Positions 7,657 through 36,604 of a stretch of DNA of 64,000 nt are shown one piece after another. The DNA is taken from IMG/VR virus record IMGVR_UViG_3300037453_000161. One strand, given 5' to 3'. Under the pieces are notes generated by a model, which saw only the letters and a list, made by a program, of their open reading frames with translations, was not told where the DNA came from and searched no databases. The translations under genes were made by a program, and so were the position numbers. Source of the DNA: an uncultured virus (IMG/VR IMGVR_UViG_3300037453_000161). Lineage: Duplodnaviria; Heunggongvirae; Uroviricota; Caudoviricetes. Each line of letters begins with the position of its first letter. Positions within the stretch are counted from its first letter, which is position 1.

Positions 7657-7989
7657 ATGCCAACCATTAACAATAAAGATGTGATGCGTGGAACGAAAAT
7701 CACTTGGGAGGAACTCGAAGAGTACCTCTCCAACAACCACGACGGCAAAGGCGTTATCGTCTTTAAGCAAGGCAAGTGGTTCAAAAAGGAGTTCACCGAA
7801 ATTGAACGCTCATACGAGGTTCACGGAAACTGCAAGTGGTTCGATAGCACGAAGTTGGGTAAATCCATCTTCGGTTACTGCCTAGACAACGACCCACAGG
7901 AGCAGGGCGTACGTCTCGACCACTATATGTTCTACCACGACAACCCAGAAGACAACTGGCAAGTTGACTACTGCTACATTGTAGAGTAG
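7657..7989 (+). CDS. Hypothetical protein in a stand-alone cassette
   Basis: 110 aa with own promoter, SD and downstream terminator; SIFGYCLD..GVRLD motif. Confidence 0.8.
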   Translation: MPTINNKDVMRGTKITWEELEEYLSNNHDGKGVIVFKQGKWFKKEFTEIERSYEVHGNCKWFDSTKLGKSIFGYCLDNDPQEQGVRLDHYMFYHDNPEDNWQVDYCYIVE

Positions 7990-8094: not shown

Positions 8095-9234
8095 CTAGAG
8101 AGCCTTTGGGTAAAGGTAGCCGTTGACACCGCTGTTCACGAAGTTTTCAAGACCACCGAGCGATGCAGAATCGCAGATAGAGTCGAGATGTACGTTCGAG
8201 ACCATTACGAGACCTAACCAGTTAGTCACGACGGTAGTACCAGCGTTGTGCATAGTGATACAGTGACCACCACAGTCATCTTCGCTGTCTTTCGTCTTGA
8301 TGTATGGGTTGTTAAGAGCGTAAAGCATCTTAATACCGACATAGTTAGGGTTGATGAGCCACATAGAAGTAGTGTTAGTGTCGAGGTCAACATCGACGTA
8401 GCGAGACTCGATGATTTCCATACGACCATAAGCCACACCACCGTTGCTGGTCAAACGCCACTTGGTAAGTGGGTCAGTCTTGAGGTAGGTGCGTACTTCT
8501 TGTTCGAGAGTCTTACGAGCAATCGGGTTGATTGCGATGATGTAATTCTCTGCGGACATACCCATAGCAGAAAGGCGGCACTCAAGCATTTCGATTGCAG
8601 CGATGAAGCCAGCAGAACCGTCTACTTGAAGCACACGCTCATCAGCGAGACGGGAAATGAGACCGTTGAATGGACGCATACCCTGACCAGAATAGGTTGG
8701 AGTACCTAAAATGGTGTTACGCTCGAAGATGAAGCGGCTGTAAAGAGCGACATATTTGCGACGAATAGTCGACATAGAGTCGCCAACCTTCTTCCAAGGG
8801 AATTGAGTGTCGTAGTTGTGATGTTTGACAACGTCTTCAAGCATTTCATCAAGAGAGGTTGCAACACAGTCTTTGACACAGAGTTCGTGCAAGTCGAGTT
8901 TGTAACGACAAGCAGTAACGGTAGGAAGACCAACACAACAGCCAGTGCCATCATCATCAAGGTTCTCAAGACCAGAGTCCGAGATTACATATGGAGTTTG
9001 GACATAGTATTTGGTACGACCTGCACCACAGGGGTCAATCAAGATTTCAGCCTGACGAGCCACCGCATTGTTAATGAGGCGAGAAGCAAGTGGGTCTGCA
9101 CCAGCGTTGTTGCTGTTAGCAATAGCCTTGCTCTTGTCATTCTGAATCCCAACTTGGATTGCGTCGATAACGTTAGTCGCAAATTGTGAAGCGGCTTCGT
9201 TCAAATCGACTGGATTCTTACCTTCAAAACGCAT
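8095..9234 (-). CDS. Probable major capsid protein
   Basis: 379 aa directly after protease/scaffold; ERNTILG...PFNGL resembles the HK97-fold spine/P-domain pattern. Confidence 0.7.
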   Translation of the reverse strand: MRFEGKNPVDLNEAASQFATNVIDAIQVGIQNDKSKAIANSNNAGADPLASRLINNAVARQAEILIDPCGAGRTKYYVQTPYVISDSGLENLDDDGTGCCVGLPTVTACRYKLDLHELCVKDCVATSLDEMLEDVVKHHNYDTQFPWKKVGDSMSTIRRKYVALYSRFIFERNTILGTPTYSGQGMRPFNGLISRLADERVLQVDGSAGFIAAIEMLECRLSAMGMSAENYIIAINPIARKTLEQEVRTYLKTDPLTKWRLTSNGGVAYGRMEIIESRYVDVDLDTNTTSMWLINPNYVGIKMLYALNNPYIKTKDSEDDCGGHCITMHNAGTTVVTNWLGLVMVSNVHLDSICDSASLGGLENFVNSGVNGYLYPKAL

Positions 9235-9236
9235 AA

Positions 9237-10454
9237 TTATTCTCCTAATTCGTTAAAGGCTTGTTTGTATGAATCGACAAGGGAGTTCTTCTCTTTGTCG
9301 TCTTCGTCAGGTGTCACATCAGCACCCTCTTCTTCGGTAGGTTCAGAGGCAGATGCAAGGGACAATACGTTTTTCAGTTTTGCCTCAAACGATTCCTCTT
9401 TCTCTTCCTTCGCAGAGAGTTTTGCTTTCAGTTCAGCATTTTCTTCTTTCGCAGCCTTTAATTCGGCTTTGAGAGATTCGACAGCGGCAGCGAGTTGGTC
9501 GACAGTAGATTCACCAGCGTCTTCAGCAGGTTCTTCGGCTTCAGCCTCTTCACCTTCTTCTTCAGCGGCTTCCTCTTCGCCAGCGTCTTCAGTTTCGGCT
9601 TCGCCTTCAACATCTTCACCAGCAGCAGCGTTCTGCTCGACTTCCTCTTCACCTTTGTCTTCTGCTTCGCCAGCAGGTTCAGCGTCCTCAACTTCAGCGT
9701 CTTCGACCTTGGTATCGACCTCTTCGTTCTCGATTTCGCCTTCTGCTTCGAGTTTCTTCTTCTCTTCTTCAGACATAGTGTTCTTTCCTTCCTCTTCACC
9801 AGCACTTGCCTTTTTGAGCAAGTCCTCGTCGTAAGAGTTAGCATTTTTAGGGTTGTCAACCACAGCGTACCCGACCACAGAGAGAGCACTAATCTTTGGG
9901 ATTAAGTACCAATCTGGGAATGAGGTGTCACCCGTGACTACTGATGCTTTGACGTATTCGTCAGCCTCATAGTAGAACTCGGATGAAATCGCTTTGCGGT
10001 TCATTGCGTGAAGTAGGTCTTTGGTTGCATAAAGTTCGTGGTCTAGTTTAACATTGACATCTACCCCGTATCTGTCATCGCCAAGTTCAACCAAGCGAAG
10101 TTCGCTCTTCTTGAACTTACCGAGGTCGATACCAGAGATATGGTCTTTGTTAATGTAGCCCTCGAAGTCTTTAGGTAACTCGTCAAACCACTTCTTAATA
10201 ACGCCTTTCCCGATAACTGCATAAGGAGTAGAGTCACCCTCTACAACTACGCCTTCATCGAGTAAGCGTACCCAGTTCTCTTTCTCTTCAGAGAACTTGT
10301 CAATGGCAAACGTTGCACCGACATTGGCATTTTCAGCCGAAGCGTCGTATTTACAATGTCTGTCCCATTTCTTCTTCAAGGCTTGTCGGTGCATCACATT
10401 CTTACGAATACGACCATCGAGCGTGCCTTTTGGAATCTTGTACTCGTCAAACAT
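9237..10454 (-). CDS. Prohead protease/scaffold fusion
   Basis: N-terminal INKDH...ISSEF...VVDNPKNANS protease-like motifs; very acidic coiled-coil C-terminus. Confidence 0.7.
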   Translation of the reverse strand: MFDEYKIPKGTLDGRIRKNVMHRQALKKKWDRHCKYDASAENANVGATFAIDKFSEEKENWVRLLDEGVVVEGDSTPYAVIGKGVIKKWFDELPKDFEGYINKDHISGIDLGKFKKSELRLVELGDDRYGVDVNVKLDHELYATKDLLHAMNRKAISSEFYYEADEYVKASVVTGDTSFPDWYLIPKISALSVVGYAVVDNPKNANSYDEDLLKKASAGEEEGKNTMSEEEKKKLEAEGEIENEEVDTKVEDAEVEDAEPAGEAEDKGEEEVEQNAAAGEDVEGEAETEDAGEEEAAEEEGEEAEAEEPAEDAGESTVDQLAAAVESLKAELKAAKEENAELKAKLSAKEEKEESFEAKLKNVLSLASASEPTEEEGADVTPDEDDKEKNSLVDSYKQAFNELGE

Positions 10455-10457
10455 AGT

Positions 10458-10769
10458 TTATTCCTCGATTACCTTGAAAGGGTTAAAAATGACTTTCGGT
10501 TTCGCTGATGGGCAAGTTCCACATTTCGTGATTTCGTACTTGATACCTCTACTGTCTAACTCTGCTTTGAGTTCAGGGGTGGACAGCATCTTCTCCCGTA
10601 CATCACCAATCGTACCCTTGATGTAGTCAATGAAGACTGGGTCTTTGGTCTCGTACTGTGTATCAGGTAGGAAAGTCAATCTCTTGGAGGTGTAACCACC
10701 TTTTTCACGGGTGACCATAACCATCCTGTCGATTGCTCCAGCCATAAAATCGTGTAATGCGAAAATCAT
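10458..10769 (-). CDS. Hypothetical protein (CxxC)
   Basis: ORF in head operon with SD AGGAG; KCGTCP. Confidence 0.7.
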   Translation of the reverse strand: MIFALHDFMAGAIDRMVMVTREKGGYTSKRLTFLPDTQYETKDPVFIDYIKGTIGDVREKMLSTPELKAELDSRGIKYEITKCGTCPSAKPKVIFNPFKVIEE

Positions 10770-10772
10770 AGC

Positions 10773-10949
10773 CTATCTCCTATCAAGTTTGTCCTTGAAC
10801 AGATTGCGAATGTACTGTTGATAGTCATTGCCAGTTGTTGATTTGACGGCTGCTGCCATCTCGTCAGCATTAACTACCTTAATAGCCTTCTTTGCAGGGG
10901 CTTTTGGGGCGGTTTTACTGGTCTTTGGTGTCTTGTTCCTCTTTGCCAT
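10773..10949 (-). CDS. Small basic protein (58 aa)
   Basis: MAKRNKTPK... read by hand, SD AAGGAG, fills the operon gap. Confidence 0.6.
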   Translation of the reverse strand: MAKRNKTPKTSKTAPKAPAKKAIKVVNADEMAAAVKSTTGNDYQQYIRNLFKDKLDRR

Positions 10950-10960
10950 AGGAGACTCCT

Positions 10961-11272
10961 TTAAGACTGTGATTTGCTTTCTTCGCCTTCACAGTTTGGA
11001 AGGGCATCCTCGCAAGGGGTGTTTGCTGCTTCTTCAGCAAGTTGTTCTACCTTGGCGACAAGACAGAAACCACAGGAAGCACTACCAATGTCGTAGTATT
11101 CCTCATCGCCGTCGTTTGCTCCAGGGAACTTAACGTAACGAGCGTTGTTGTCTAACTTCTTGACGATTTCGTTGATTTTACCACCGACACCCATTTCGGT
11201 AATCACTTTGGTAGTACCATCAGTCAAGGTTAGGGTCAATTTCTTGCCGTACTTTCGGTTTTTAGTAGACAT
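10961..11272 (-). CDS. Hypothetical virion-associated protein
   Basis: ORF with SD GAAAGG, first gene of head operon. Confidence 0.7.
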   Translation of the reverse strand: MSTKNRKYGKKLTLTLTDGTTKVITEMGVGGKINEIVKKLDNNARYVKFPGANDGDEEYYDIGSASCGFCLVAKVEQLAEEAANTPCEDALPNCEGEESKSQS

Positions 11273-11355
11273 AAGTTAAACCTTTCCGTTTGATTAGGTC
11301 TAATTGTCATAAGACATAGGTGTCATCTAGGTAAATAATACCATAGATTTAAGAA

Positions 11356-11784
11356 TTATTTTTTCTGGTCGGAGTTGAACTCTACCCAGAAATTGTAATC
11401 CTTATCACGCTTCGTTGAACAGAACCGCTTGATATTGCGACCAGTGTCCCAGACACTCGTCTTAATCTCAAGTGTACCGTCCTCGTTATAGTGTGAACGA
11501 ATTAAATATGAGGTACGGCATTTACCACACTCGATAATCTCGGTCTGGTCGCCTGTACCTTTCCCAATGATAGTCTTAACAACGGAATTACACTTGCAAA
11601 TCTCATTGGGACGCTTTGCATAGAGAGATTGACACTTGAACTGGAGAGCAGGAACAGTTCTTCCGTCCATAGGGAACTTGTAATCGACAATCTTTGGAAG
11701 GTCAATCTTGAAGATGTTTTCTTGAGTGTCCTTTGCCACCTCTTCAGATAACACAGGAACTTCGTGTTCTTTAGGCGATGTCAT
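11356..11784 (-). CDS. Hypothetical Zn-ribbon protein
   Basis: C..C / CGKC motifs. Confidence 0.65.
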   Translation of the reverse strand: MTSPKEHEVPVLSEEVAKDTQENIFKIDLPKIVDYKFPMDGRTVPALQFKCQSLYAKRPNEICKCNSVVKTIIGKGTGDQTEIIECGKCRTSYLIRSHYNEDGTLEIKTSVWDTGRNIKRFCSTKRDKDYNFWVEFNSDQKK

Positions 11785-12382
11785 TTAACTTATCTCCTGC
11801 AATGTTAGAGGTAAGGTCAGATTCACGGATTTTAGACATAAGGGAAAGGACATCATAAGGGTTGAGGATGTTTCTCATCTCGTATGCTTGTTTATCAGAC
11901 ACGAGTTCTGCACCAACATAGTCCCAGTTCTTGCCATTCTTGCGGAAGCGGTAAGCCTTAACTGATTTAGGGATTTCAGTCATATGTTGAATACCATTAA
12001 CGATGGCGTGACCGAGTACGACAACAATGTCTAGGCTATCTACAACCTCTTTTCCTGGTTTGCCGTCCTTGCCTTCTTCGACGTGCGTCTTCTTGTCAAC
12101 AAGGTAACGATTGGCAGTGTAAATGTTGATGTCGAGCATAGCAGCCTTGTTACGGTTAATCTTGCGAAGATTACCAGTAACCTTGTCAAACTCGATAGCA
12201 CCTGGCTTTGGGTCACCGTGAAGATAACCGTCATTACCTTCTAGCAAGCCCATTGCACGTTGTTCTGCCATTTTTTTGTTGTATTCCTCTGGCGTATAGA
12301 CGTTTGCCATACCAGGGATGTTCTTGGCGTTCTTGGAGTCGTCCAAGATACTTGCCAAAACTTCGGCTTTAATTGTAGCCAT
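11771..12382 (-). CDS. Hypothetical protein
   Basis: 203 aa, SD AGGAGG. Confidence 0.75.
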   Translation of the reverse strand: MATIKAEVLASILDDSKNAKNIPGMANVYTPEEYNKKMAEQRAMGLLEGNDGYLHGDPKPGAIEFDKVTGNLRKINRNKAAMLDINIYTANRYLVDKKTHVEEGKDGKPGKEVVDSLDIVVVLGHAIVNGIQHMTEIPKSVKAYRFRKNGKNWDYVGAELVSDKQAYEMRNILNPYDVLSLMSKIRESDLTSNIAGDKLNDIA

Positions 12383-12462
12383 AGTTCCTCCTTTGAGTAT
12401 TAGTAGTCATAACTTAACAATAACACAAAAACGCAGATGTTTTTTTAAGGTAGTAAACAACG

Positions 12463-12692
12463 AAAAGACCCCCGAGTGTGAGCATAGGAGGTCTTTTCGC
12501 TAATTGCGGCTACTGACCAATTCTAAATAAGAATGATGTTAAAGAATTAGCATCGGAAACACATAAGACAACTCACAATAAGAACTTATGAAAGGATTTA
12601 TTGCAAGAAAGAGTTACCACTGGAAGGTAATAACTCATAATCCTGGTCAGTAGTATTATTTGTCGAGGTACAATCCTAGGATTAGAATCACT
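12463..12692 (-). ncRNA. Putative structured small RNA (~230 nt) antisense to the shared early leader
   Basis: Minus-strand TTGACA(12725-12720)-17-TACAAT promoter; 10-bp closing stem 12510-12519/12644-12653; terminator 12463-12499; no credible minus-strand ORF. Confidence 0.65.
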
Positions 12693-12728
12693 TATAATTG
12701 TATTACAAATAGGGTCAAATGTCAAGGT

Positions 12729-13010
12729 TTACTTGTAAGTACAGATTTTGTAGATTGGGAAGAACACCCAGCATACTAAACATAACCAAGGTGTTACTGT
12801 CAATACGAACGTCCATAAGCCTCCGAATACGAGATTATACAGAGGTTCACACAACCAGCATAGCATTGTCAACATAATTGCTAGACCCCACATTAAGAAT
12901 GGGAGCATAATAACTTCACCTGTGATGCCAAGAGCAGGGCTTCTGGTAATAGTTACAGAGCCGTCTGGGCGTTTCTCTCTTTGATAATTTGTTCTACCAT
13001 AATGATACAT
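12729..13010 (-). CDS. Small membrane protein
   Basis: Two hydrophobic segments; own TTGACATTTAGA promoter near 13070. Confidence 0.7.
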   Translation of the reverse strand: MYHYGRTNYQREKRPDGSVTITRSPALGITGEVIMLPFLMWGLAIMLTMLCWLCEPLYNLVFGGLWTFVLTVTPWLCLVCWVFFPIYKICTYK

Positions 13011-13943
13011 AGTTTTATTCCTTTCCAGTGGTTATTGTAATTACATTGTATCACAGATGATTCTAAATGTCAAGCCTTTTTCTGGAGAAAGTGTGCCATA
13101 TTTTTTTTCGGGGTTTTAGACGGACGAAAGGCGAATTAGTTTTGGGTCAAGCATAAGTAGGTTGTAGGAGGTCAGTGGGGAGAGAACGCCGTAATCCGCT
13201 CTCTCCGTGCGGATTCCCGCCGATTAGTTCCACGATTCCGCCCGCCTGTCAATTCGTCAATTCGCCACGCTTCGCCCCTGTTTTTGTCTTTGTTATGTCG
13301 TAAAATGTATATTGTGCGACACTTCCCGCCCCTGTTATGGCTTCGGGCTTCACGGATTCCGAACGCTTCGGGCGGTTTTTGTTCGGTTTTTGATTCGGGC
13401 GTTTTATGTCATAATATGCGACGATTTGCGACGATTTGCGGGGATTCCGTCGCCTTTTTGCCATTTTTTGCGGATTTCGCAAGGGCGGGCGGGCTTCGGA
13501 TTCCCGAACGGGCGGGCGGTTCGGCGGGCTTATAATATAACGGCGGATTTTTTGCCTTTTTCACCCCCCGCCCCTGTCTTATCATAACGAGTATTAAAAA
13601 CACAACCGCCGACGACTTCGGCGGGGATTCGCCACGCTATAACACGCCGTGTGGCTTCATATAACGCCATTTGCGGGGCTTCTAGGGCTTCGGGCGTATC
13701 TTTTCCCTATTTCAAACTTAACACGCCTTAAAACGCCTTAAAATGGCTTAAAAATTAACAGGGCTTAAACTTTCGGGGCTTCCCGTCAATCTTCCCCCGA
13801 TTCTTCCCGCTTCAATCTTCACGGCTTCGGGATTCTTTCGGATTCAATCAACAGACAAAAAAACACGGGCGGGGCTTTCTTCTTTCCCTTTCCCGTGTCT
13901 TTCTTCGGTCTTTCTTTTTTGTGGTCTTTTTTTGTGGCTTCGT

Positions 13944-14255
13944 CTATTGTGCGGGCTTCGCCACGACTTCCACGCCATAAGGGCTAAAATCGCCCCCGCC
14001 GTTGTGTATCTCTAAAACTTCCCAATCACAACCGCCATTTTTGCCCGCTTTCCAATCCGTCAAACATTGTGCCATTTCGTCGGCGTGTTTCTGTTTCAGA
14101 TGTTCCACGATTTCGGCTTTTGTGTTCGCTTCGTTTATAGACAACACAACCGCCACGACAACCGCCACGCTTGCGACAATCCAACCGACGACACCCGCCA
14201 AGCGTTCCGCCTGTTTCTTTCTTTGTCTTTCATAATAACTTTGATATTTTGCCAT
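13944..14255 (-). CDS. Membrane-anchored hypothetical protein
   Basis: One TM segment; SD GAAAGG. Confidence 0.7.
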   Translation of the reverse strand: MAKYQSYYERQRKKQAERLAGVVGWIVASVAVVVAVVLSINEANTKAEIVEHLKQKHADEMAQCLTDWKAGKNGGCDWEVLEIHNGGGDFSPYGVEVVAKPAQ

Positions 14256-14316
14256 TTTTTCGCCTTTCTTTTCTTATGATTCGGGGCGGGCGGATTCCCG
14301 CCCGCTTCCCTTTGTC

Positions 14317-14658
14317 TTATTTCTTAAAAAAATCATTGAAAAAGTCGTCGCTTGCCGTGTGTGCTTCCCATTTTTCGCCGTATTCGTCCATAAAATCGCC
14401 AACCTTTAACGCTTCACGGATTCGGCGGGCGTTCCAATCACCCCCGACATTTTCCGCCAAAAACTTACAAACGGCTTTCATTGTGGTTTTTGAATAGTCC
14501 CAGTCGTCGCCAAAATCTAGCGTGTGCGTGTCCCAGTCAATAAGCACAACCTTTGAATTATAACTTTGTAGGATTTGCGTGTTCAATTCGTCAAAACTTG
14601 CGACGATTTGATTTGCCCAAGCGTTCCCGTTGTGGTTCGTCATTTGATATAATTTCAT
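14317..14658 (-). CDS. Early hypothetical protein
   Basis: LQSYNS...WDYSKTT motif recalled from phage early genes. Confidence 0.75.
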   Translation of the reverse strand: MKLYQMTNHNGNAWANQIVASFDELNTQILQSYNSKVVLIDWDTHTLDFGDDWDYSKTTMKAVCKFLAENVGGDWNARRIREALKVGDFMDEYGEKWEAHTASDDFFNDFFKK

Positions 14659-15211
14659 TTTGTGATTCCCTTTCGCCTTTTCGGCTTACTTTGTTATATT
14701 GTGGCGGGATTCGCCCCCGCTTTTTTCGCTTCCGCCTTGATTCTTTATTATTTGCGGGCGTTGGGGGCTTTTCCCTTGCGTTGGTCTTATGTGTTCCAAC
14801 TGTCTCTATTGTATCACGGCGGGCTTTTTTTGTCAATACACCGCCAACAGGGGCGAGCGTGATTTTCTTTTGTATTTTTTGCGGATTTTGTGGCGGATTC
14901 GGGCGGATTCGCCACGCTTCACGGATTCCCGCCAATCGTCGCCAATCCGTGCGGGATTCGTGCGGATTCAACACAAAAACACCCGCCACGATTCAACACG
15001 GGCGGGCGGTTCGGTTCGGATTCGTGCGGGGCTTCGTGATTCCGCCATAATATCGCAAGCGGGCGGGCGTTCGGGATTCGCAAGCATAAGACACAACACG
15101 GCGGGCGGGATTCCCGCCAATCGTTCCCGATTCGTTCCGCTTGCGGTATTATAGCACAATCACGGCGGGCGGGATTCGTTCGGATTCAATCCCGCCACGC
15201 TTCGCCAATCT

Positions 15212-15421
15212 TTACAGGTTCAACAGGTCGCCGACGATTTCCGAAAATATGCGTTGTGCGGGCGTGTGGTCGCCGAAAATGTGCGGGATTTCTTCCCGAT
15301 TCGCCACGCTTATATTATTCAAAATCCACGCCATTATATCGTCAAGGTATGCGGGGCTTATACCTGTTTCAATCTGTAAATCGTTTTTCAATTCACGGAT
15401 TCTTTCGTCTTTGCTTTTCAT
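15212..15421 (-). CDS. Early hypothetical protein
   Basis: SD GAAAGG before MKSKDE. Confidence 0.65.
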   Translation of the reverse strand: MKSKDERIRELKNDLQIETGISPAYLDDIMAWILNNISVANREEIPHIFGDHTPAQRIFSEIVGDLLNL

Positions 15422-15470
15422 ATAATCAACCTTTCTTTTCATTATAGGGGCGGGATTCCGCCCCTTTGTC

Positions 15471-15719
15471 TTATATTTCCACGCTATTTGCGATTTCGTC
15501 GGGTCTTTGATATTCCCAGTCTAAAACATAATTGTCGCAAGCGTATAATTCGGGCGTGTATTCAATCACTAAAACTTCTTTGCCGTCGCCTGTATAATCC
15601 ATATCAACAAAACGGCGGATTCGGTCGCCGTCTAGTTGTCTAAAATAGACGGATTCCACGCAATAGAGTGATTTCACAACCTTTGTGATTCTTTCTTTTT
15701 GCTCTTTGATATAATCCAT
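15471..15719 (-). CDS. Early hypothetical protein
   Basis: Start MDYIKE follows promoter/leader unit; the longer ORF-track start runs through the promoter. Confidence 0.75.
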   Translation of the reverse strand: MDYIKEQKERITKVVKSLYCVESVYFRQLDGDRIRRFVDMDYTGDGKEVLVIEYTPELYACDNYVLDWEYQRPDEIANSVEI

Positions 15720-15886
15720 TTTTTCCCTTTTCCGAAAGTGTCTTATGCGTTTCTTTCTGTCTCTATTATAGCACGGCGGATTCGCTTTGTCAATACTATT
15801 TTTGAAAGTTTTTGAAAGTTTTTGAAAGTTTTTCAATTTGAAAGTTTTTCGGATTCGGGCGGGCGGATTCCCGCCCGAAAGTTTTT

Positions 15887-16432
15887 CTATTTCCAGACGA
15901 TTTCTTCGTGCGTGTGTATAATCCCGTCGTCGTCCAGTTCGTATTCGCCCATATAGTCAAGGGCGGATTCAATTTCGGATTCAATCAAGTCGTCCGTTAT
16001 ATCTTCTTCGGCGTGTAGCATATCTTCAATCGCCTGTAAAACTTTTTTCGCCGTCTCTTCCAATTCGTCGTATATTTTGTCGCCTTTGTCGCCGTATAAG
16101 TCGTCGGATTCAAGATTCCAGTATTCGTCCGCAAGTTTTAACATCTTTTCATAAACAGGGCGGTCGGATTCGCTAAAATAATCACCGATTCCGTCGTTCA
16201 ATCCCTTTACAAACTCTTCTGCGTCCGTCAATCTATAATAAAAACTATTATAGTTGTCATAATATCTAAATCCCCTTTCACGCCCCTTTTCAACAAAAAT
16301 TGTCGCAAGCGTGTCATTTTGCCAAAATGATAGAGTATCATAACAGCGTTCGTTTATGGCGTTTTGAAAATCCCGATTTGCTTCGTAAAGATTCTTCAAT
16401 TCGTCTTTCGTCATTTCGTTTAACTTTTTCAT
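15887..16432 (-). CDS. Acidic early protein
   Basis: 181 aa, D/E-rich, own promoter unit. Confidence 0.8.
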   Translation of the reverse strand: MKKLNEMTKDELKNLYEANRDFQNAINERCYDTLSFWQNDTLATIFVEKGRERGFRYYDNYNSFYYRLTDAEEFVKGLNDGIGDYFSESDRPVYEKMLKLADEYWNLESDDLYGDKGDKIYDELEETAKKVLQAIEDMLHAEEDITDDLIESEIESALDYMGEYELDDDGIIHTHEEIVWK

Positions 16433-16595
16433 ATATTCCCTTTCAGAAAGTGTCTTATGTGTTGCTTTCTGTCTCTATTGTATCACAACAGAAAGTTTTT
16501 GTCAATACTTTTTTCAAAGTTTTTTCATAGACAGGGATTCGGCGGGATTCGGGATTCCCGCCCGTGCGGTCATATACACGGGCGGATTCGGGATT

Positions 16596-17234
16596 CTATT
16601 TCTTCAAAGTTTCTCTAAAATCGTCAAGCGTGTCATATTCCACGCCGTTTATTTCAATCGTCGTTCCGCCGTCAATCACCGCCATATCTATTGTCTCAAT
16701 CATATCGCCAATATACCCGTCGTCAATATACCCGTTTTTGTCTATAATCAAACTTTTCAAAAACTCGGTCAATTCTTCGGTCGTGTCAAACGGATTTTTC
16801 GTGATTTCCATTTCATAATCGTCGGTCGTATAATTATATTCGCTTGGTGCGAAAATACTTATAACACGGGCTTCAAAGGGATTTCCCGCCGATTTTGCGG
16901 ATTCCATCAACCAGTTCAAAGACGCTTCCGCCATAACTTCTAAAACATAAACAAAGTCAAAGTGGCTTATAAACTCTTCAATCTTCACCCCTGTTTCACG
17001 CTCTAACTCTTCGCCGTCATAATTGTCTCGGTCATAAGTCAATTCGGTCAAGTCAAACTGCCCATAAGTATCAACCAATCCGCCGTGTATATCTTTACTC
17101 AAAATAATATGGCTTCGGTCAATCTTATCATAATCTTTACAGCGTCGGTCAATATATCTTTCTTGGATTCCGTCCGCCGTCAAAGTGCCTTTTGCTCTAT
17201 TTTCAAACTTTAAGTAGTCGTCAAAGTTTTTCAT
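16596..17234 (-). CDS. Acidic early protein
   Basis: 212 aa, D/E-rich, own promoter unit. Confidence 0.8.
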   Translation of the reverse strand: MKNFDDYLKFENRAKGTLTADGIQERYIDRRCKDYDKIDRSHIILSKDIHGGLVDTYGQFDLTELTYDRDNYDGEELERETGVKIEEFISHFDFVYVLEVMAEASLNWLMESAKSAGNPFEARVISIFAPSEYNYTTDDYEMEITKNPFDTTEELTEFLKSLIIDKNGYIDDGYIGDMIETIDMAVIDGGTTIEINGVEYDTLDDFRETLKK

Positions 17235-17312
17235 TTTATTATACCTTTCAGAAAGTGTCTTATGCGTTTCTTTCTGTCTCTATTATAGCACGCCGAAAGT
17301 TTTTTGTCAATA

Positions 17313-17534
17313 CTATTTTGAAAGTTTTTCAAGTCCGTTGTATAATTTCGCAATAGCATCACTTCGCAATTCAAAACAGATTCCGTCGTCGGGGTCGCCA
17401 TTTTCCATATAGTTATAAGCGTATTCGTATAAGTCCGTCCAAAAGTTTTTGCCGATTCGCTTCTTATATTCGTCTATAAATAAATCCCACGACGATTCTA
17501 GGGCGGTAGTCGCCCAATCGCCTTTATTTTCCAT
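17313..17534 (-). CDS. Early hypothetical protein
   Basis: Coupled to the upstream gene by TAATG. Confidence 0.7.
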   Translation of the reverse strand: MENKGDWATTALESSWDLFIDEYKKRIGKNFWTDLYEYAYNYMENGDPDDGICFELRSDAIAKLYNGLEKLSK

Positions 17535-17899
17535 TACTCTTCCCCCAATTCGTTTTTAAGGTCGTCAATCAAGTATTTCAACAGGTCAATCAACTCATAG
17601 TCGCAAGATTTCCCGTTGCCATACCCGTCAAGATATGCGTAGTTGGCGTTATTGTCTATATCTTCAAGTAGGATTTTCACGCCAATCCAACCCCGTTGGT
17701 CAAGATTCCATTTCACTAAATCTTCCCACTCGTCAGATTCAAGGTCATAAATCGTGTCGTCGGGATTATGTTCATAGTTGTATTCGTTCAACAGATATAC
17801 TGCTTCGGATTTCCAATCGTCCGCATATTCCCTGTATTTGTCGGCTTCAATCTCTTTAAGTAGGGATTCCGCCTTTTTCTTCATTTCTTCATAATCCAT
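17534..17899 (-). CDS. Acidic early protein
   Basis: 121 aa, YLDGYGN motif, own promoter unit. Confidence 0.8.
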   Translation of the reverse strand: MDYEEMKKKAESLLKEIEADKYREYADDWKSEAVYLLNEYNYEHNPDDTIYDLESDEWEDLVKWNLDQRGWIGVKILLEDIDNNANYAYLDGYGNGKSCDYELIDLLKYLIDDLKNELGEE

Positions 17900-18173
17900 T
17901 TTTTGCCTTTCAGAAAGTGTCTTATGTGTTGCTTTCTGTCTCTATTGTATCATACCGAAAGTTTTTTGTCAATACTATTTTCAAAGTTTTTTCAAAATTG
18001 AATCGGTGTCTCTATAAACTTATCTTCACAGAATCGGTGATTTTCCCCCGTTGCTATCTGTATATTTTTTTCCCGTTCGTCCATATATCGCATAACCATT
18101 ATAAAGTGCGTTATATCACCAATCCGCTCTTCAAAGTTTTTGCCGATTTTTGCCCACCTGCTTCGTCTCATAG

Positions 18174-18464
18174 TTATTTCGCTTCCCTAAACACGCTTAT
18201 AATGATATTACTCGGCGACATAGCACACTCACTCAAAGTGTATAATTCGGCTTTGTCGCAAGATTCAACCATTTTGATATATTCGTATAAATCGCCAATT
18301 ACAGGTTCGGTCTCGTCTTCCCACTCTAACCCGTCCGCTAGATACTGCTCAAAAGTCTCTTTAAGACAATATCGCAAGTATTTTGCTATATCTTCCGCCT
18401 TGCCTAGTATTCTTTCGTCGGTCAAGCGTATAAGATTATATTTCTTCATATCTTCGTCTAACAT
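18174..18464 (-). CDS. Acidic early protein
   Basis: SD AAGGAG before MLDEDM. Confidence 0.7.
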   Translation of the reverse strand: MLDEDMKKYNLIRLTDERILGKAEDIAKYLRYCLKETFEQYLADGLEWEDETEPVIGDLYEYIKMVESCDKAELYTLSECAMSPSNIIISVFREAK

Positions 18465-18477
18465 CTTATCTCCTTTT

Positions 18478-18765
18478 CTACCAATCGTGATTTTGCCACA
18501 TATCAGGTTGGTGGTCTTCATAAATCTGTTTTAATACTTCGTCGGCGTTGCTATGTTCGCCGTCGTCGCATACATTATAATAGACAACATTGTGGCTTGT
18601 GCCGTCTTCGTTGTATTCAATTACTCTATACCAAAGTAGGATTTCGGCTTCGTCTTCTAAAACTTCGCCACCGCTACACCAACTGCCGTCGCTTGCGACA
18701 TAGTGCGTTTCAATCGGGGCTTTGATTCGCCCTTCTTCTACTTCAAAGTATTTCATTTCTTCCAT
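18478..18765 (-). CDS. Acidic early protein
   Basis: Own promoter unit. Confidence 0.75.
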   Translation of the reverse strand: MEEMKYFEVEEGRIKAPIETHYVASDGSWCSGGEVLEDEAEILLWYRVIEYNEDGTSHNVVYYNVCDDGEHSNADEVLKQIYEDHQPDMWQNHDW

Positions 18766-18891
18766 TATTATTCCTTTTCCGAAAGTGTCTTATGTGTTGC
18801 TTTCTACCCCTATTCTATCACAACCAAAAGTTTTTGTCAATACTATTTTGAAAGTTTTTTCAAAAAAGTGGCGGATTCGCTCCGCCACCCC

Positions 18892-19647
18892 TTAAAACTT
18901 TTTCAATTCCATATGCCCCGACAACTCTTCCAAAATCTCTTCTTTCGTTGCTATAAACTCATAATTCTCGGATTCATAAAATAGTCTATATTCGTCTTCG
19001 CCCAATCGGGTTAATTGTATCATTTCACTTTTGTCATAGTCGTCGTGTTTCAGTTCGTGTTCTTCGTTCAATTCTAAATAATCCATTATTGAATCTCCTT
19101 TTCTACGATATATGCGACGCTTTCAATATATTGTGCGTCCTCATAGACAACAGAATCATATTCCCAATCAGCACGGCTTGTGCCTGTTAATTCTTCCATA
19201 TACTTTTCTGCGTCCGCTTTTTTTCTATACACCCAACAATCCGTATCTTGTCCGACGGTCTGCGTGCTTACAACCACATATACTTTCATTTTAACAATAC
19301 CTTTCTTTTAACATTTCTTTATCTACGCTCAACCCTGCTTCTTCACGACTTCGGATTTCTGCTTCTATGTTCAACTTCTTGGCTTCTTCCGCCATTTCGC
19401 TATAACATTGTTGGGCTTCTGCTAGATTATAAAAATCAACACAAGTATCTTGAAACATAGCGTCTTGGTCGGTATCTTCGTCGTCAGTGTCAATCATACC
19501 GACACGATAGTATTCGTTCCAATACCCGCCGTCGTCTTCGTTGCCGAATCTTGCGTCTTTGTTCAACACAATATCAGGCTCGTTCGGGTCAATCTCAAAC
19601 TCTTCCGACTTGTAGATTTTTTCCCTTAACATCATTACTCTTTTCAT
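18892..19647 (-). CDS. Three small acidic early genes (19291..19647, 19086..19289, 18892..19086)
   Basis: Contiguous ORFs with SDs behind one promoter unit. Confidence 0.7.
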
Positions 19648-19737
19648 TATTTTCCTTTCAAGTAGTGTCTTATGTGTTTCTACTTACCCCCATTGTAGCA
19701 CAACCGAAAGTTTTTGTCAATACTTTTTTGAAAGTTT

Positions 19738-19929
19738 TTAATAATACAAAAGTTTTTCTGCGTCTTCTTCCGCTAACAATCCACGCTTCACAATCTCATT
19801 TCCAAGTTTTTCAATCCTATCAAGTTGCTTTTTCTTCCCACGACGGCTTGTATCATAAGCCATATCAAGTTGGGCTTCAACATAAAGAAAGATAAGTGTT
19901 TTGTTATCAAAATCCTTGATTCTGTTCAT
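19738..19929 (-). CDS. Early hypothetical protein
   Basis: SD AAGGAG. Confidence 0.65.
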   Translation of the reverse strand: MNRIKDFDNKTLIFLYVEAQLDMAYDTSRRGKKKQLDRIEKLGNEIVKRGLLAEEDAEKLLYY

Positions 19930-20018
19930 AATGTTATATCTCCTTTTTCAAAATGTTATATCTTCTTAAAACTTTTTTGGATTTTCACCCCTATAAACAG
20001 GGGCGAAAATGTTATATC

Positions 20019-20605
20019 TTAATTCTCTATATCGTAAATCATACTTAACACTTCACGGGGATTCTTTGTGGTGCTATTGTCGTGTTCTAACATCATAACT
20101 GCCCCCAGTGCGTCTGAAAGTCCGTCCAAGCGTCCAATCGCCTGTTGGTAGGATTGGTCGTCTTCAAAACTACTTTCGTCAAGATTATCGTTCAACTTCT
20201 CACTTGCGGTTCTCAATACCCACTCGGTATCACTTTCCAACTCGCCGTGTAGTAGTTGGTCTAGTTGTTTTGGTGTTAATGGTAGATATTTCAAAATCTG
20301 CGAATCTACCCAATCGGCTCTTTGGTCGTCATAATCTTTGCCACTATCGCCAATTTCGCCACGCTCATAAAGGTCGTCAAACTGCTCTTCATACTCGCTC
20401 ATAAGTAGGTCAACTGCCTTTTGTGCGAGTTGCTTATAGTTAATGCTTGTCATAGTTAAATCTCCGCTTCTAACTTTTTAATATCGTTAATATAACTTTT
20501 AATCATATAATGATTTTCAGGGTGTTTGTTGCCACTACGCTTCATAGCGTTCCACAACACAGCCATTTCCCTTTTGAGTTCTGCTAACTCTTCTTTTTTT
20601 GTCAT
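20019..20605 (-). CDS. Two early genes (20456..20605, 49 aa; 20019..20453, acidic 144 aa)
   Basis: Follow the promoter unit at 20623-20678. Confidence 0.7.
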
Positions 20606-20683
20606 AATTTTCCTTTCAAGTAGTGTCTTATGTGTTTCTACTTACCCCCATTGTAGCACAACCAAAAGTTTTTGTCAATACTT

Positions 20684-21605
20684 TTATTCCAAAATTATAT
20701 CAAAGGTTGCGAACGCCATATTCTTTTCGCCGTCTTCGTCTTCCAAGTTATGAATCGCCACAACCATACTGCTTTCTAAATTGTAGTATGAATCGGCTTG
20801 GTAGCCCCTGTCTTTCAATATCTTCACAAACTCGTTAATAATTGCTTCTTCTTCATTTTCAAAATCTGCTAACTTTTTCATATTATTCCTTTCCTTTCAA
20901 AATATCACAACCAATTTGTTTTAAGTCGTTCAAACAATCGTAGCATACAGCACAATAATCTGTCGGCTCTTCTTCTAACGCTCTCAAAATTGCTTCGTCT
21001 TCGGGATTGCCGTCTTCCCAATCAAACCCGTCAATCCACAAGAATCCAACTTCGCTATCATAAATATCGCCACACCTATCACAAGTGTTATAACCCATAG
21101 GGTGTAGCACATCTTCATACTCGTCAATCGGCTCGTCGCCCTCATATTCGGCACAACTAATTTCAAGTTTCAAGTCGTCTATGTTAAGAATACGATTCTT
21201 GTATATTTTATTCTTTAATTCGTCAATAACTTCTTGGCGTGTCATAAATTACTCCTTTACTCTCTTAAACAAGGCGATTGTGTAGCCGTCGTCGTCTCGG
21301 TCAAGCGTATCAAACTCAACCTTAATCGCCGTTAATTTTTCTTTACCAACAAACTTGCCGTTATTATCATATAGGTCAAGTTTATTCGCTTCCATAAAGT
21401 AGTCGTCAATATCGGGGATTCCGTCTTCGCTCACCCAGCCGACGAACTCTCCGTCCAATCTGATACTATTCGCCCCCGTCAAAATAGCGTCAAACAGGTT
21501 CTCTGCTTCCCAACAATCACGCTCTAAATTGTTTCTTGCTTCCATAAGGTCATTTTCCTGCGACCAAAATGGTAGATTGTTGTAGTCAATTACTTTAATT
21601 TTCAT
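20684..21605 (-). CDS. Three early genes (21249..21605; 20883..21245 with two CxxC; 20684..20881)
   Basis: Contiguous ORFs with SDs behind one promoter unit. Confidence 0.7.
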
Positions 21606-21730
21606 ATTATATTTCCTTTCAGATAGTGTCTTATGTGTTTGCTATCTTACCCCTATTGTAGCACACCGAAAGTATTTTGTCAATACTATTTTCACAAAAA
21701 AATTATGGCGTTTCCGCCATAATTAGAATC

Positions 21731-22360
21731 CTACTCTTGAACAGCCCCGTCAATTACTTCGGCTTCCGTGATTTTCGGCTTGCTCTTTACTTCGGCTCTC
21801 GGCACTTTCTCGGCTTCCATAGCGTTCGTCTCAATGTCCGCCAAGATGTCGCTCATAATGCTATCAGGGCGTTTGATAGTTTGGTGAATCTCGTTAATCA
21901 CGGTCTTCTTGCCCATAAGCGTCTTCTGTAAATCCCAAAATAGTTTCGTTGCGTCTGCGTCTTTTTCTAGCACTCCGTCAAGTAGTTGTCCTGCGATAAT
22001 CTCGTTAATCGTCAAGTCTTTCTTATTCTGCTCTTCAAACGCACGCTTTTCTTCAACAGTCATAGACCCAATCGCTTGTAGATACCAAATAGGTAGTTTC
22101 CCCATATCTACTTTATCTTTTTGGTATGCTATACGAAGTGGCATATTTTCAAATCTCTGGTTCTTGACACCGTTAATCGTGCGTGAAACCGCCTTTTCCT
22201 TATTGCCTTTGCGTGATTTTACGCCAATATCTAACTTCCTACCTGTTGCCTTTTCTCTCTCTTCAATCTTTTCAATAAACTCTTTCTCTTTCGCCTTTTC
22301 AGCGTTAATATCAGGGTTTTCATAATCAGGCAAGCCCGCCTTTTCGTATTCTTTTCTCAT
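21731..22360 (-). CDS. Possible terminase small subunit
   Basis: LTINEIIAGQLLDGVLEKDADATKLFWD resembles TerS-type helices; leaderless late-type start. Confidence 0.45.
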   Translation of the reverse strand: MRKEYEKAGLPDYENPDINAEKAKEKEFIEKIEEREKATGRKLDIGVKSRKGNKEKAVSRTINGVKNQRFENMPLRIAYQKDKVDMGKLPIWYLQAIGSMTVEEKRAFEEQNKKDLTINEIIAGQLLDGVLEKDADATKLFWDLQKTLMGKKTVINEIHQTIKRPDSIMSDILADIETNAMEAEKVPRAEVKSKPKITEAEVIDGAVQE

Positions 22361-22413
22361 ATTATTATAATATCACATAAAAACACCTGCGGTTTAGAAC
22401 CACAGGTGTTATG

Positions 22414-22647
22414 CTAGAATCCTGCTTTCTCCCGAAACTTTTTGAAATCGTCTTCTAGGATTTCCATATAAGCGTCTTGAAAGTTTTTCCCGCCCTTTTT
22501 GTAGTTTTCATAGACAGTCTTGTCAGCGAACAACCCGCTCAACCAGCCCGAAATATAGCCATACTTGATTAACTGTTGTTCAGGCGATAATTTATCGTCT
22601 TTGAAAAGTTTTTGAAACTTTTTCTCATCAAAGTTTTCAGGCTTCAT
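22414..22647 (-). CDS. Hypothetical protein
   Basis: ORF overlapping the upstream stop. Confidence 0.6.
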   Translation of the reverse strand: MKPENFDEKKFQKLFKDDKLSPEQQLIKYGYISGWLSGLFADKTVYENYKKGGKNFQDAYMEILEDDFKKFREKAGF

Positions 22648-23008
22648 ATTGCTTCCTCACTTTCCTACGCTTACTTTTTAACCCACGAACTTTCGCTCCC
22701 GCTAGACTCGCTTCACGGGCGTAGCCCGCTTGAAACCCAATCGGTTTTCCGTCCGCACGAAGAGTTGCTACCCCGTGTTTGCCCCTTTCAGACATCAACT
22801 CACGATAGTTATCTTCTCCAAGTTTTGCTTTCAAAGTTTCTTGTGCCTTTTTGCCACCTTGACGGCGATTTTCAGCAATCTCTTCTGGGTCTTTTTTCTG
22901 ATAATAGTTTTTCACTTCTATTTCGCCAGAGGCACGACGAAGTTTCGTCTTATTCCAATAGTATTGGCGTTGGTATTCTCTCTGTTTTTCTTTATCTCTA
23001 TATGCCAT
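22637..23008 (-). CDS. KGG-motif-like basic protein
   Basis: RQGGKKA..LG.DNYRELMSERGKHG..GF...AREASLAGAK. Confidence 0.65.
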   Translation of the reverse strand: MAYRDKEKQREYQRQYYWNKTKLRRASGEIEVKNYYQKKDPEEIAENRRQGGKKAQETLKAKLGEDNYRELMSERGKHGVATLRADGKPIGFQAGYAREASLAGAKVRGLKSKRRKVRKQYEA

Positions 23009-23057
23009 TATGTGTTCTCCTTTCTGCTCTCTAATATATCACAGCCGAAAGTTTTTG

Positions 23058-23819
23058 TCAAGACTTTTTCAAAAGTTTTTCAACAATACGACCACACACC
23101 TCATTATCACGCTCTACACGGTGAATATGAACTTTTGGCACGCCCTCTTTTGCGTCAGGATTAGCAAGAACCAAGAAAAGTTCTTTTGCGTCGCACATCA
23201 ACATTTCCATCTGCATTTGACAGCGTGCGTTAAGTGGCACATTATCAAGGCTCTTACAGGCTTTCTCGTGCTTTCCGACGTAAACTTTTGCTTCTCTCAA
23301 CCCGTCTCCGCCCATATATTCTTCCACGATATACTCCCCCTCGCCTTTCTTTATATGGTAAGGGTTAGACGGCGTATTTTTATCGTATGTGCGAATCACC
23401 ACGTCATTATAGGCTTTGAACTCAACAGGAATAAAACCGCCACCTTTTACCCAGTTCTCATCGTCCTTATGGACAATCAAACCGTCAGGCGAGTAGCCAG
23501 CAATCGGAAACTTTCTGTTGGTGATAAAGGTGCAGGTTTGGATTTCTAGGTTGGATTCTGCTAATTGCTCATTTAATTGCTCACGCATTTCATATTCAAT
23601 GACGTGTCCACGCTCTGCGTAATCATTACCGTTTGGTCGAATATACTCCGCAGCACGCTCATTTTCTGCCAAGCACCTATTAACACCATTGGTCAACAGT
23701 AGTTGTGCGTTAGAGCAGGTTACCCTGCCCTTACGCAACTCCAACCACTCTTGCGTTCCTTGCTCAATGCCGAAGTAAAGTGTAAGGTCGCCAGTTTCTT
23801 TGGTGAAAGTTTTTTCCAC
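23058..23819 (-). CDS. YqaJ / lambda-exonuclease family protein
   Basis: EQGTQEWLELRKGRVTCS, RGH..E, YSPDGL, EFK, QMQ motifs. Confidence 0.88.
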   Translation of the reverse strand: MEKTFTKETGDLTLYFGIEQGTQEWLELRKGRVTCSNAQLLLTNGVNRCLAENERAAEYIRPNGNDYAERGHVIEYEMREQLNEQLAESNLEIQTCTFITNRKFPIAGYSPDGLIVHKDDENWVKGGGFIPVEFKAYNDVVIRTYDKNTPSNPYHIKKGEGEYIVEEYMGGDGLREAKVYVGKHEKACKSLDNVPLNARCQMQMEMLMCDAKELFLVLANPDAKEGVPKVHIHRVERDNEVCGRIVEKLLKKS

Positions 23820-24029
23820 TTACGCCTCCTGAAACTTTTTGGAAGCACCCCTACGGCTCTTCAATCCACCTTTACGCCCTGCGATACGAGCGAGTTCGTG
23901 ATTTGAAGCAAAACCCCCAGTATGCCCATTACGACCACCCTTACCACCAATTCGTGAGTAAAAGTCGTCCCCATACTTTTTCTTATTCGTTGCGGCGGCA
24001 CGCATACCGCCAAGTTTAGTCCCAGCCAT
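23820..24029 (-). CDS. KGG-repeat stress-induced-type protein
   Basis: MAGTKLGG..AA.TNK..YG.DFY.RIG.KGG...GGFA.N.ELAR.AG.KGG. Confidence 0.8.
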   Translation of the reverse strand: MAGTKLGGMRAAATNKKKYGDDFYSRIGGKGGRNGHTGGFASNHELARIAGRKGGLKSRRGASKKFQEA

Positions 24030-27726: not shown

Positions 27727-28593
27727 CTAATCTCCGAAATTATCTTTATAATACTTTCCCATAGTTGGTAGATATTTTGCATATGCCTCGGCAAACTTGC
27801 CACCAGCATCACCGTCATATAATTTAACAGCCCCTTTGGTAAACGCAGAAATGCCTTTATACATACACTTACGTTCAGTTTCATAATCATCAAAGCCTTC
27901 TTCGTCTTCCTTTTTATGGTATGGGTATTTACCGTAGTGCATTACCCCAAGGTTAGCGGCGGCGTAAACCCCAAGGAACTCTTCCTCGGTTAATTCTAAT
28001 TTAACTTTTTTCATTTTCAATCCTTTCTCCCGTTTTCGGGTCATAATGTGGTCTATTTTCTTTATAAAACTTTACATACGTTGGGTGGAACTCTGTCATC
28101 ACAAGGTCAAGTGTGTCGTAGTCAATCATATAATGAACGTTGTTCAACACCATCTTGCCACTATACTTGACGATAGATAATTGCGAGTTGTTCCAGTAAT
28201 CTACACCCATAATCACTGGTTGCTTGTATTTGTTAAATAACTCTTTGCTATAAAGTTCTGCTTCCTCAATGGTCTTGCAGTCTCTAACTTTCATAACATT
28301 CTCCTTACTTCTTGCTCTTCTTGTGCCCTAGCCGCAGTGGTTTCTTCCGATGGCGTAATCACACCCTCTTCAACCAACTTTGCACGAGTGCGACGGATTG
28401 TTTCAGGGCTAGACACAGACTTTAGATGTTCATATAACTCTGGGTCGTGCCAACCCTCTGTCCACCAAACAGTTGCGATAAGTCTCTTATCGTCATTGGC
28501 TAGGTCAGGATTCTTTTCAACAAGAGCGATTATCTTGTCTCTCATTGCTTGGCTATTTACCTTCATTACAATCCTTTCCATAACGGGCTTCAT
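27727..28593 (-). CDS. Three hypothetical genes (28291..28593, 28001..28294, 27727..28014)
   Basis: Overlapping start/stop junctions. Confidence 0.65.
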
Positions 28594-28807
28594 AGTATTT
28601 GCGTCCGTTCTTACCTATTCCCGCTTGTCGGTAGACGGACAGTTGTATGTTCTTGGTTATCTTCCAAGGGACTGTAACTTTGCCCTTCTTCTTTGGGTGG
28701 ACAAAGTGTAGGTGGTCGCCTTTCTGTTTCAAGAACACCCAACCATCTTTGTAAAGTTCTGCAATCAGTTCCTTACGTCCCCCCTCCGTATGACCTTTGC
28801 TACTCAT
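28553..28807 (-). CDS. hicA: HicA-family toxin (mRNA interferase fold)
   Basis: ELIAELYKDGW...QKGDHLHFVHP.KKGKVTVP...SVYRQAG. Confidence 0.88.
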   Translation of the reverse strand: MSSKGHTEGGRKELIAELYKDGWVFLKQKGDHLHFVHPKKKGKVTVPWKITKNIQLSVYRQAGIGKNGRKYYEARYGKDCNEGK

Positions 28808-35839: not shown

Positions 35840-36604
35840 ATGGCTTTTTTCAATGTAATAATACCAACATATAACAGCGAGAAAACACTGCGTAGAGCGG
35901 TGGATTCAGTACAAATGCAAACCTTCAAAGACTACACCTTAACCCTTGTCGATGACTGCTCAACTGATGGGACAAGAAAGATTATGAGCGAAATCAAGGA
36001 AGCAGACATTATTGTCCTCGGCGAGAAAAGGTTTAACGGTGGTTCTAGGAATGTTGGCGTAGCAGAATCCCCAGACGGTGAGTACCTTTTGTTCCTTGAT
36101 GCCGACGATGAGTTCGTCGACCCACAGTTCTTTGAGAAACTCCACAAGTTTATTGAAGAGAAGAACCGTCCAGATATGATTAGGTTGAGGTACGTCCGTG
36201 TTTACGACCACTCTACGAAGAACCACCAAACTGAAATCTACTACGACGAAAAGACGCTTGAAGATGTGACCTGGTCACCGAGAGTTGCACCGTGGACAAA
36301 GTGTATTAAGAAGAGTCTGTTCCAGAAGTTCCCAGAGAATACCTTAATGGAAGATGTCTGTCAACACATCTGTCAACTTGATGTGACTGACACGGTTGAG
36401 TGGTTTCCTGATGTTGTTGTGAAGTGGCACTTGCACGACGCTTCCACCTCGCATAATAACTCCCCGAAGTGGCAGAGTTCTGCGTGGCGGTTCGTGGCTG
36501 ACTTGATGGACTTGGATTTGAAAAGAGATTATACCAAATGGCGAAGAGATAAAAAGGTTAAAGGTGCGATTAGAGGACTAATGAATGGCGAAATCAAACA
36601 ATAA
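35840..36604 (+). CDS. Glycosyltransferase family 2
   Basis: IIPTYN, VDDCSTD, SRNVG, FLDADD, ED. Confidence 0.93.
   Translation: MAFFNVIIPTYNSEKTLRRAVDSVQMQTFKDYTLTLVDDCSTDGTRKIMSEIKEADIIVLGEKRFNGGSRNVGVAESPDGEYLLFLDADDEFVDPQFFEKLHKFIEEKNRPDMIRLRYVRVYDHSTKNHQTEIYYDEKTLEDVTWSPRVAPWTKCIKKSLFQKFPENTLMEDVCQHICQLDVTDTVEWFPDVVVKWHLHDASTSHNNSPKWQSSAWRFVADLMDLDLKRDYTKWRRDKKVKGAIRGLMNGEIKQ

Follow-up and report, generated by a model that had tools for sequence, protein, structure and literature searches.

The uncultured virus IMGVR_UViG_3300037453_000161 (IMG/VR; Caudoviricetes) is represented by a record of 65,563 bases which, with a 127-base assembly overlap, corresponds to a circle of 65.4 kb, nearly all of it contained in the 64,000-nucleotide stretch analyzed here (the window). 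Proteins encoded in the window include a terminase large subunit (TerL), a portal, a tape measure, helicases, a primase and a RecE/YqaJ-like exonuclease, and the phage is best represented in bovine gut and faecal sequencing runs. No DNA-level match was found among named phages, and TerL matched neither a named phage nor an entry of the PDB. We describe a zone of about 10 kb, beginning abruptly at 13.2 kb, whose most visible trait is a field of the pentamer GATTC confined to the plus strand; its features are collected in Table 1.

An earlier note, made from the letters of the window alone, had described about 50 GATTC and no GAATC between 13190 and 16600, and the direct count returned exactly 50 and 0, respectively; the counts showed both the enrichment and the strand skew. 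The first GATTC of the field lies at 13212 and the first GAATC to its right at 18000, one base from the 18001 originally given, while in the rest of the genome (60.6 kb outside 13205-18000) the two words occur 61 and 58 times. In Markov simulations of the region the mean number of GATTC was 5.3, 12.7, and 34.5 at orders 1, 2, and 3, and 50 copies were never reached in 300 runs per order. The left edge proved as sharp as had been noted: the change-point falls within the interval of Table 1, with the minimum of the cumulative log-likelihood at 13206 and the last purged word at 13203. The rightward fading was equally borne out, GATTC density being at background by about 19 kb. The context GGCGG(G)ATTC, said to be the usual one, was an overstatement, since it occurs in 13 of the 50 copies (GGATTC in 36), and the non-coding blocks, said to be the densest, are so in one case only: 14659-15211 carries 28.9 copies per kb, whereas the first block, with 13.5 per kb, is no richer than 15212-16600 (15.1 per kb). 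Ten of the 58 copies of the field lie within stems of at least 6 bp. The hairpins at 14283-14308, 14703-14721, 15446-15465, and 15854-15879 have their T-runs on the plus strand, opposite to the genes, and may therefore be stops of antisense transcription or processing sites rather than terminators of early mRNA. The first non-coding block (13205-13943) had no match in Rfam.

Table 1. Features of the early zone and of its inner border (window coordinates).
Feature	Position	Strand	Remarks
Sharp composition edge	13203..13206	.	Predicted physical end entering the host first
Restriction-word-purged early zone	13205..23300	.	Both-strand and one-strand losses, stepwise return
GATTC field	13205..17900	+	58 copies on +, 0 on −; lies in the most collapsed, one-orientation vocabulary
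Non-coding block 3' of the last early gene	13205..13943	+	Few-word vocabulary
About 20 small open reading frames (ORFs)	13944..21605	-	Mostly acidic (Asp + Glu 13-31%); candidate anti-defence cargo
GC-rich intergenic hairpins	14283..16575	.	GATTC in loop or arm
113-aa ORF	14317..14658	-	Weak homologues in T7-like phages and in G004
Non-coding block of peak GATTC density	14659..15211	+	16 copies, variable flanks; contains promoter 14836
Ten near-identical sigma70-type promoters	14808..23061	-	Shared leader; all fire toward the edge
Promoter -35 positions	14836, 15793, 16505, 17310, 17972, 18840, 19720, 20678, 21683, 23061	-	
Conserved 209-aa protein	21731..22360	-	Lead: may resemble a terminase small subunit; 8.5 kb off the edge
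RecE/YqaJ-like exonuclease	23058..23819	-	Inner border of the zone
KGG-repeat protein	23820..24029	-	Host lead to Saccharibacteria

The polarity is not peculiar to GATTC. Between 13205 and 17900, 37 five-mers have at least 10 copies on one strand and 0 on the other, and one-orientation words make up 68 of the 255 common five-mers (0.27, vs. 0.12 ± 0.02 in order-2 simulations and 0.03-0.05 in five control blocks); the lack of GAATC as such was already reproduced in 41% of the order-2 runs. CGAAT, which we take to be the HinfIII site, is one-sided as well, at 36:0. The polarity persists in the terminal non-coding block, where the strand counts in 13205-13860 are 10:0 for GATTC, 16:0 for CTTC, and 11:0 for both TTCC and GGCT.

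This polarity is part of a wider loss of short words. Seven of the 16 four-base palindromes (AGCT, CATG, CCGG, CGCG, GATC, GCGC, and GGCC), together with CTNAG and GGNNCC, are absent from the whole genome. GGNCC occurs in it only twice and GGATA/TATCC only once, an unusually complete avoidance of restriction sites. In the zone, ACGT, GTAC, TCGA, TGCA, GTNAC, GCNGC, CCNGG, CTNNAG, and CCNNGG are additionally absent from both strands, GASTC is absent from 12336 to 22705, and asymmetric words, e.g., CCTC/GAGG and CATCC/GGATG, have also gone from both strands. Of the 48 palindromic patterns tested, 12 are purged locally in 13205-22104, where ACGT, GTAC, TGCA, and GTNAC were never observed vs. 24.5, 23.5, 26.5, and 33.8 copies expected. 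The strongest word gaps begin at 12.0-13.2 kb in 32 cases out of 40. Taken together, 24 purged patterns have counts per 500 nt of 24-57 to the left of the edge, 0 at 13.2-16 kb, 1-13 up to 23 kb and 17-38 beyond; the set was chosen from the zone itself and its zeros are given by construction, which does not apply to the sharp left side and the staircase. The words come back stepwise between 16 and 32 kb, GTAC being first met again at 32093. The local depletion of restriction-type sites begins at a fixed point, as in early DNA of the T5 first-step transfer (FST) and T7 type.

A second kind of ban concerns one strand only. GAAG, GGAA, TGAC, and GAGA are absent from the plus strand alone (0:131, 0:104, 0:72, and 0:36), with expectations from other minus-strand genes of 37, 31, 29, and 24, respectively, and such one-strand-banned words numbered 0-2 in seven control tiles. 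Asymmetric words are thus held in one orientation beyond the coding-strand bias, the pattern of escape from Type III, Type ISP, and MANTIS enzymes. In the first 2 kb, motif space was 0.45 vs. 0.58 for bipartite motifs and 0.28 vs. 0.60 for five-mers in both orientations. Codon usage pays a cost, Phe being encoded by TTC in 3 of 34 cases vs. 64% in late genes and Glu by GAG in 12 of 101 vs. 39%, and most of the genes nearest to the edge have GAAAGG, not AGGAG, upstream of the start. The counts did not bear out the idea that the polarity reduces how many gapped palindromes there are in total. The 10-kb purge with its many one-strand bans is the main feature of the region and had been missed in the earlier note, whose location of the field at a genome end finds indirect support.

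Relatives were sought from two sides. With the capsid, 14 loci at 58-65% identity were found, three of which were compared as whole records (G001-G003), and the search with field genes gave 2 loci, one of them in G004, a complete record with a terminase that fails to match that of the window. The four comparison genomes are distant, and their hosts may differ from that of this phage. A GATTC field is absent from all four, G003 having been examined through genome-wide counts and gap scans instead of a per-kb profile. No close relatives with the field emerged from viral and genome scans, one viral scan giving 3 unrelated GC-rich loci, or from the metagenome scans, of which one gave nothing and the other 8 distant or partial loci. 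In the two oral relatives GAWTC is depleted genome-wide (28 vs. 94 in G002 and 11 vs. 99 in G003).

G004 has the same architecture with different words: its edge is sharp and stands about 2 kb from the terminase gene, it has a non-coding block that is G-rich and one-sided, and its purge, extending over 7-12 kb, has removed 12 of 48 palindromes, including GANTC. In G004 the genes run outward from the edge, and the one-sided words go with the coding strand. A weak homologue of the 113-aa ORF adjoins the purge edge of G004; in Autographiviridae records weak homologues (E 1e-4 to 9e-3) are found close to the left record end, at 646-2270, and further ones sit at about 85 kb in phages of Enterocloster, which show no edge. 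No comparable edge was seen in Enterocloster CB457P2 (43 kb of 103), Pelagibacter HTVC201P, P087, or TM7 phage DolZOral124_53_65. The break points of records G001 and G004, within about 0.9 and 0.2 kb of their edges, are assembly overlaps and were not used. The conserved block 8095-12382 adjoins the early edge in this phage and tail genes in G001 and G002; the edge has thus moved with the early module in a rearrangement. In the oral relatives the terminase match is split by an in-frame insertion of about 270-300 codons, possibly an intein (G002:C1:28617-31085; G003:C1:50055-52523). G002:C1:50982-51107 (L022), non-coding and about 0.9 kb inside the edge of G002, carries on one strand three exact words and one partial word of what we take to be the DnaA-box consensus. 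No exact DnaA box was found in this phage, G001, G003, or G004. The injection-stop region of T5 also has DnaA boxes (10.1101/866236).

In G001 and G002 the counterpart of the 209-aa protein is encoded about 1-2 kb away from the syntenic place, and in G004 TerL is found about 2 kb outside the edge, positions that would suit a packaging (pac/terminase) array or a translocation array resembling the FtsK-orienting polar sequences (KOPS), both envisaged in the earlier note. We nonetheless regard such a role as very improbable. The spacing of GATTC is irregular (7-437 nt), the comparison genomes lack the field and do not conserve the word, and the gene resembling the terminase small subunit is far from the edge in this phage, its identity being itself a lead; GGGNAGGG, presumably the KOPS consensus, is absent from 13205-23300. 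The 209-aa protein belongs to one Atlas cluster, with DUF5681 on 34% of the members and 142 shared features, and matched no curated family.

The promoters of Table 1 are consensus matches only (11-12 of 12 positions). The early ORFs had no curated family in Pfam or NCBIfam, and in PHROG they matched only 21575 and 14286, both families of unknown function. An acidic family of 181 aa counts 54 relatives, 47 of them aligned, and had no match in Pfam and no convincing one in the PDB. No methyltransferase family was matched among the ORFs scanned. The block is a mosaic in which strain contigs join different promoter repeats (window 15726-23080), and these joints suggest that cassettes may be shuffled between the repeated leaders. 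Just left of the edge (window 13108-13161), other strains have a different stretch of 76-175 bases, with loose ends in X2, X3, and X8.

The mosaic block and the joints between promoter repeats, together with a polarity that tracks the coding strand in two phages, could be read without any reference to DNA entry, as a foreign module with its own composition or as selection for unstructured, purine-rich early mRNA. Little credence can be given to this, however: the zone decays stepwise into conserved replication genes (GTAC being absent as far as 32093), unlike a two-edged import, selection on mRNA offers no explanation for the loss of palindromes from two strands, and the polarity is present also in the terminal non-coding block.

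The interpretation that we favor, on a modest balance of probability, is that GATTC, with its field, is simply the word that stands out most in a restriction-proofed early block, likely the first-injected end of the genome, which would escape restriction until early proteins act. Palindromic (Type IIP) sites and asymmetric sites active on two strands would have to go from both strands, and enzymes needing two inverted sites (Type III, Type ISP, MANTIS-like) would be evaded by words kept in one orientation. This orientation would come from the acidic genes, whose coding strand is purine-rich (GAA and GAC codons), and would then be imposed on the adjacent non-coding DNA, because Type III, ISP, and MANTIS-like enzymes act at long range. 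Re-use of a few tolerated words would leave fewer distinct motifs on offer and would thereby favor local duplication of those tolerated, GATTC being the winning "safe" word of the lineage and not a signal. The return distance of each word would reflect the time for which the DNA is exposed before early proteins act. As to the physical genome end that the earlier note had considered probable, the sharp edge, the stepwise decay and the homologues of the 113-aa ORF 0.6-2.3 kb from T7-like left record ends speak for it, and from these we infer a terminus at the edge. Restriction is described as being decided by the location of sites in early-injected DNA (PMC12455610), and one-strand depletion of sites has been described under MANTIS (10.64898/2026.09.23.753747). 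Contig depth does not double over the zone and dips to the right of the edge; it was not used, as depth of this kind does not reveal ends and strain splitting would produce the same dip.

Known systems offer partial parallels. The first-injected DNA of T5 (FST) and of Autographiviridae likewise loses target sites in a block of about 10 kb of small early genes with strong host promoters (PMC12455610), and in T5, too, transcription of the 5.9 kb that enters first runs toward the end, like that of the early genes of this phage. The stepwise decay is unlike T5 and Autographiviridae, and both the terminus and any staged injection are putative here. T7 has 36 EcoP15 sites in one orientation (PMC3874151), and our recount of CAGCAG in T7 gave 0:36. 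Both in this bias and in that under MANTIS, asymmetric words are kept in one orientation only, as they are here; the bias of T7 and MANTIS is, however, genome-wide and for one site, whereas in this phage it affects dozens of words at one end.

Several observations weigh against the restriction-proofed entry end. In the first 8.9 kb of T5 and T7, 0 of the 48 short palindromes are purged vs. 12 here; the early proteins matched no known anti-restriction family and no solved structure; some contigs run through the edge; and gapped palindromes in the field are reduced in variety only, not in total. The strong purge is missing from the three relatives that are closer in capsid, G002 showing a lower vocabulary but 0 purged palindromes at the syntenic place, and the drop in motif variety being only weak in G003 and almost nil in G001. 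GAWTC is a restriction-type site avoided by three comparison phages, which makes its excess here odd. The remaining difficulties concern GATTC itself. The motif occurs also inside genes, as the earlier note had stated, with 21 GAATC on the coding strand vs. 6.6 in free synonymous shuffles, 11.8 with two-strand bans only (maximum 18 in 300 samples) and 20.6 with the strand-specific bans imposed, a null that is tight and partly circular, only 22% of the codons having moved. Non-coding DNA holds 36 GATTC vs. 5.4 predicted by a maximum-entropy model over the allowed words, a 6-7-fold excess and the largest of any five-mer, GGCGG and TTTTT being in excess too, and GATTC has returned to background where other bans still run on to 22-23 kb. 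Because the coding excess vanishes under the strand bans and the non-coding excess stays, the polarity of GATTC is part of the general one-orientation rule, and its non-coding abundance calls for positive selection or for the amplification of a handful of tolerated words. In view of this non-coding excess and of the fading of GATTC before the bans, the "safe word" step is an assumption.

The same non-coding excess speaks for GATTC (GAATC on the strand that would have its 3' end at the edge) as a selected, direction-read signal, either a Chi-like brake on an end-processing helicase-nuclease of the host or a loading array for an end-protecting protein ejected together with the DNA. An invariant core between variable flanks, a decay steeper than that of the bans and the dipeptides of the field proteins (Glu-Ser 9 vs. 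4.1 expected, Asp-Ser 0 vs. 4.4) point in this direction, and, provided that a DNA end lies at the edge, the geometry is that of active Chi (PMC12315714). The terminal Chi clusters of phages LLS, MD8, and P1 (PMC12315714) also consist of a dense one-orientation word fading from a presumed end; unlike them, GATTC is a five-mer without a known reader, is not kept by the distant relatives compared, and lies within a general purge in a phage with its own RecE-like exonuclease. The Chi-type role proposed in the earlier note is consistent with the single orientation and with the clustering at one place, and is at odds with the recombination module of the phage, Chi-rich lambdoid phages being mostly without a Rec module. 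Moreover, the word is depleted or purged in G002, G003, and G004, one-orientation words track the coding strand and not the edge when this phage is compared with G004, and strand-specific bans remove the coding excess. Overall, we consider a selected signal unlikely.

Improbable to a further degree is that the one-orientation array acts as a decoy or shield, holding an orientation-dependent restriction enzyme uncut, or that GATTC is the one A-containing word to arrive already methylated by the previous host and is hence safe. The lack of inverted copies across 4.8 kb at high density would agree with this, as would the one-sided CGAAT; Type III enzymes stay bound to their sites and can be sequestered on them (PMC3874151), and one-strand enrichment of asymmetric sites is on record (10.64898/2026.09.23.753747). 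No phage methyltransferase was matched, and a palindromic GANTC methylase would explain neither the polarity nor the loss of GASTC. The decoy for a GANTC methyltransferase or restriction enzyme suggested in the earlier note fits poorly for these same reasons, as a palindromic enzyme ignores orientation and the field holds no GAATC.

The clusters with which the KGG-repeat protein groups have Saccharimonadota as their commonest known phylum, and one of the protein's two matches among named phages is a TM7 phage, which provides a lead toward a host among Saccharibacteria. Genomes of the candidate phyla radiation (CPR) are described as rich in restriction enzymes (PMC4742961). It is conceivable, if rather doubtful, that this is a Saccharibacteria phage combining a one-way code at the entering end, without palindromes and with every asymmetric word in a single orientation, with a GAATC array that serves as a signal (Chi-like brake or enzyme sponge) for an undescribed end-processing or restriction enzyme of CPR. 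In one structural protein, Lactococcus P087-like phages resemble this phage at only 22-23%. Elsewhere in the window, GT2 glycosyltransferase and Stealth-like genes adjoin at 35840-37313, candidate modifiers of the virion, the host surface or DNA; an ORF for a HicA-like toxin lies at 28553-28807, its neighbours without a match to any antitoxin family; and a promoter with an early-type leader stands outside the zone at 7584 (plus strand), ahead of the ORF 7657-7989.

The literature searched, which included few subscription papers, yielded no methylome of Saccharibacteria, and no report in it describes a phage end purged of many words with others kept in one orientation. For single enzymes each of the two principles is known, the one from the leading DNA of T5 and Murciavirus and the other from the strand bias of T7; here the two act jointly on dozens of words, and over 10 kb they reshape codons, ribosome-binding sites and non-coding DNA, in a case much more extreme than the T5 and T7 models. 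The model that we favor gives a prediction for the virion end that is precise to tens of bases and flags about 20 acidic proteins without assigned function as anti-defence candidates. If a protein does read the non-coding GATTC excess, this would be a new oriented end signal, and if the one-way code with a GAATC signal holds, the return distances of the words would give the targets and the timing of host defence from sequence alone. The banned words and their return distances amount to a prediction of which restriction systems are present in the uncultured host population, which is probably one of CPR.

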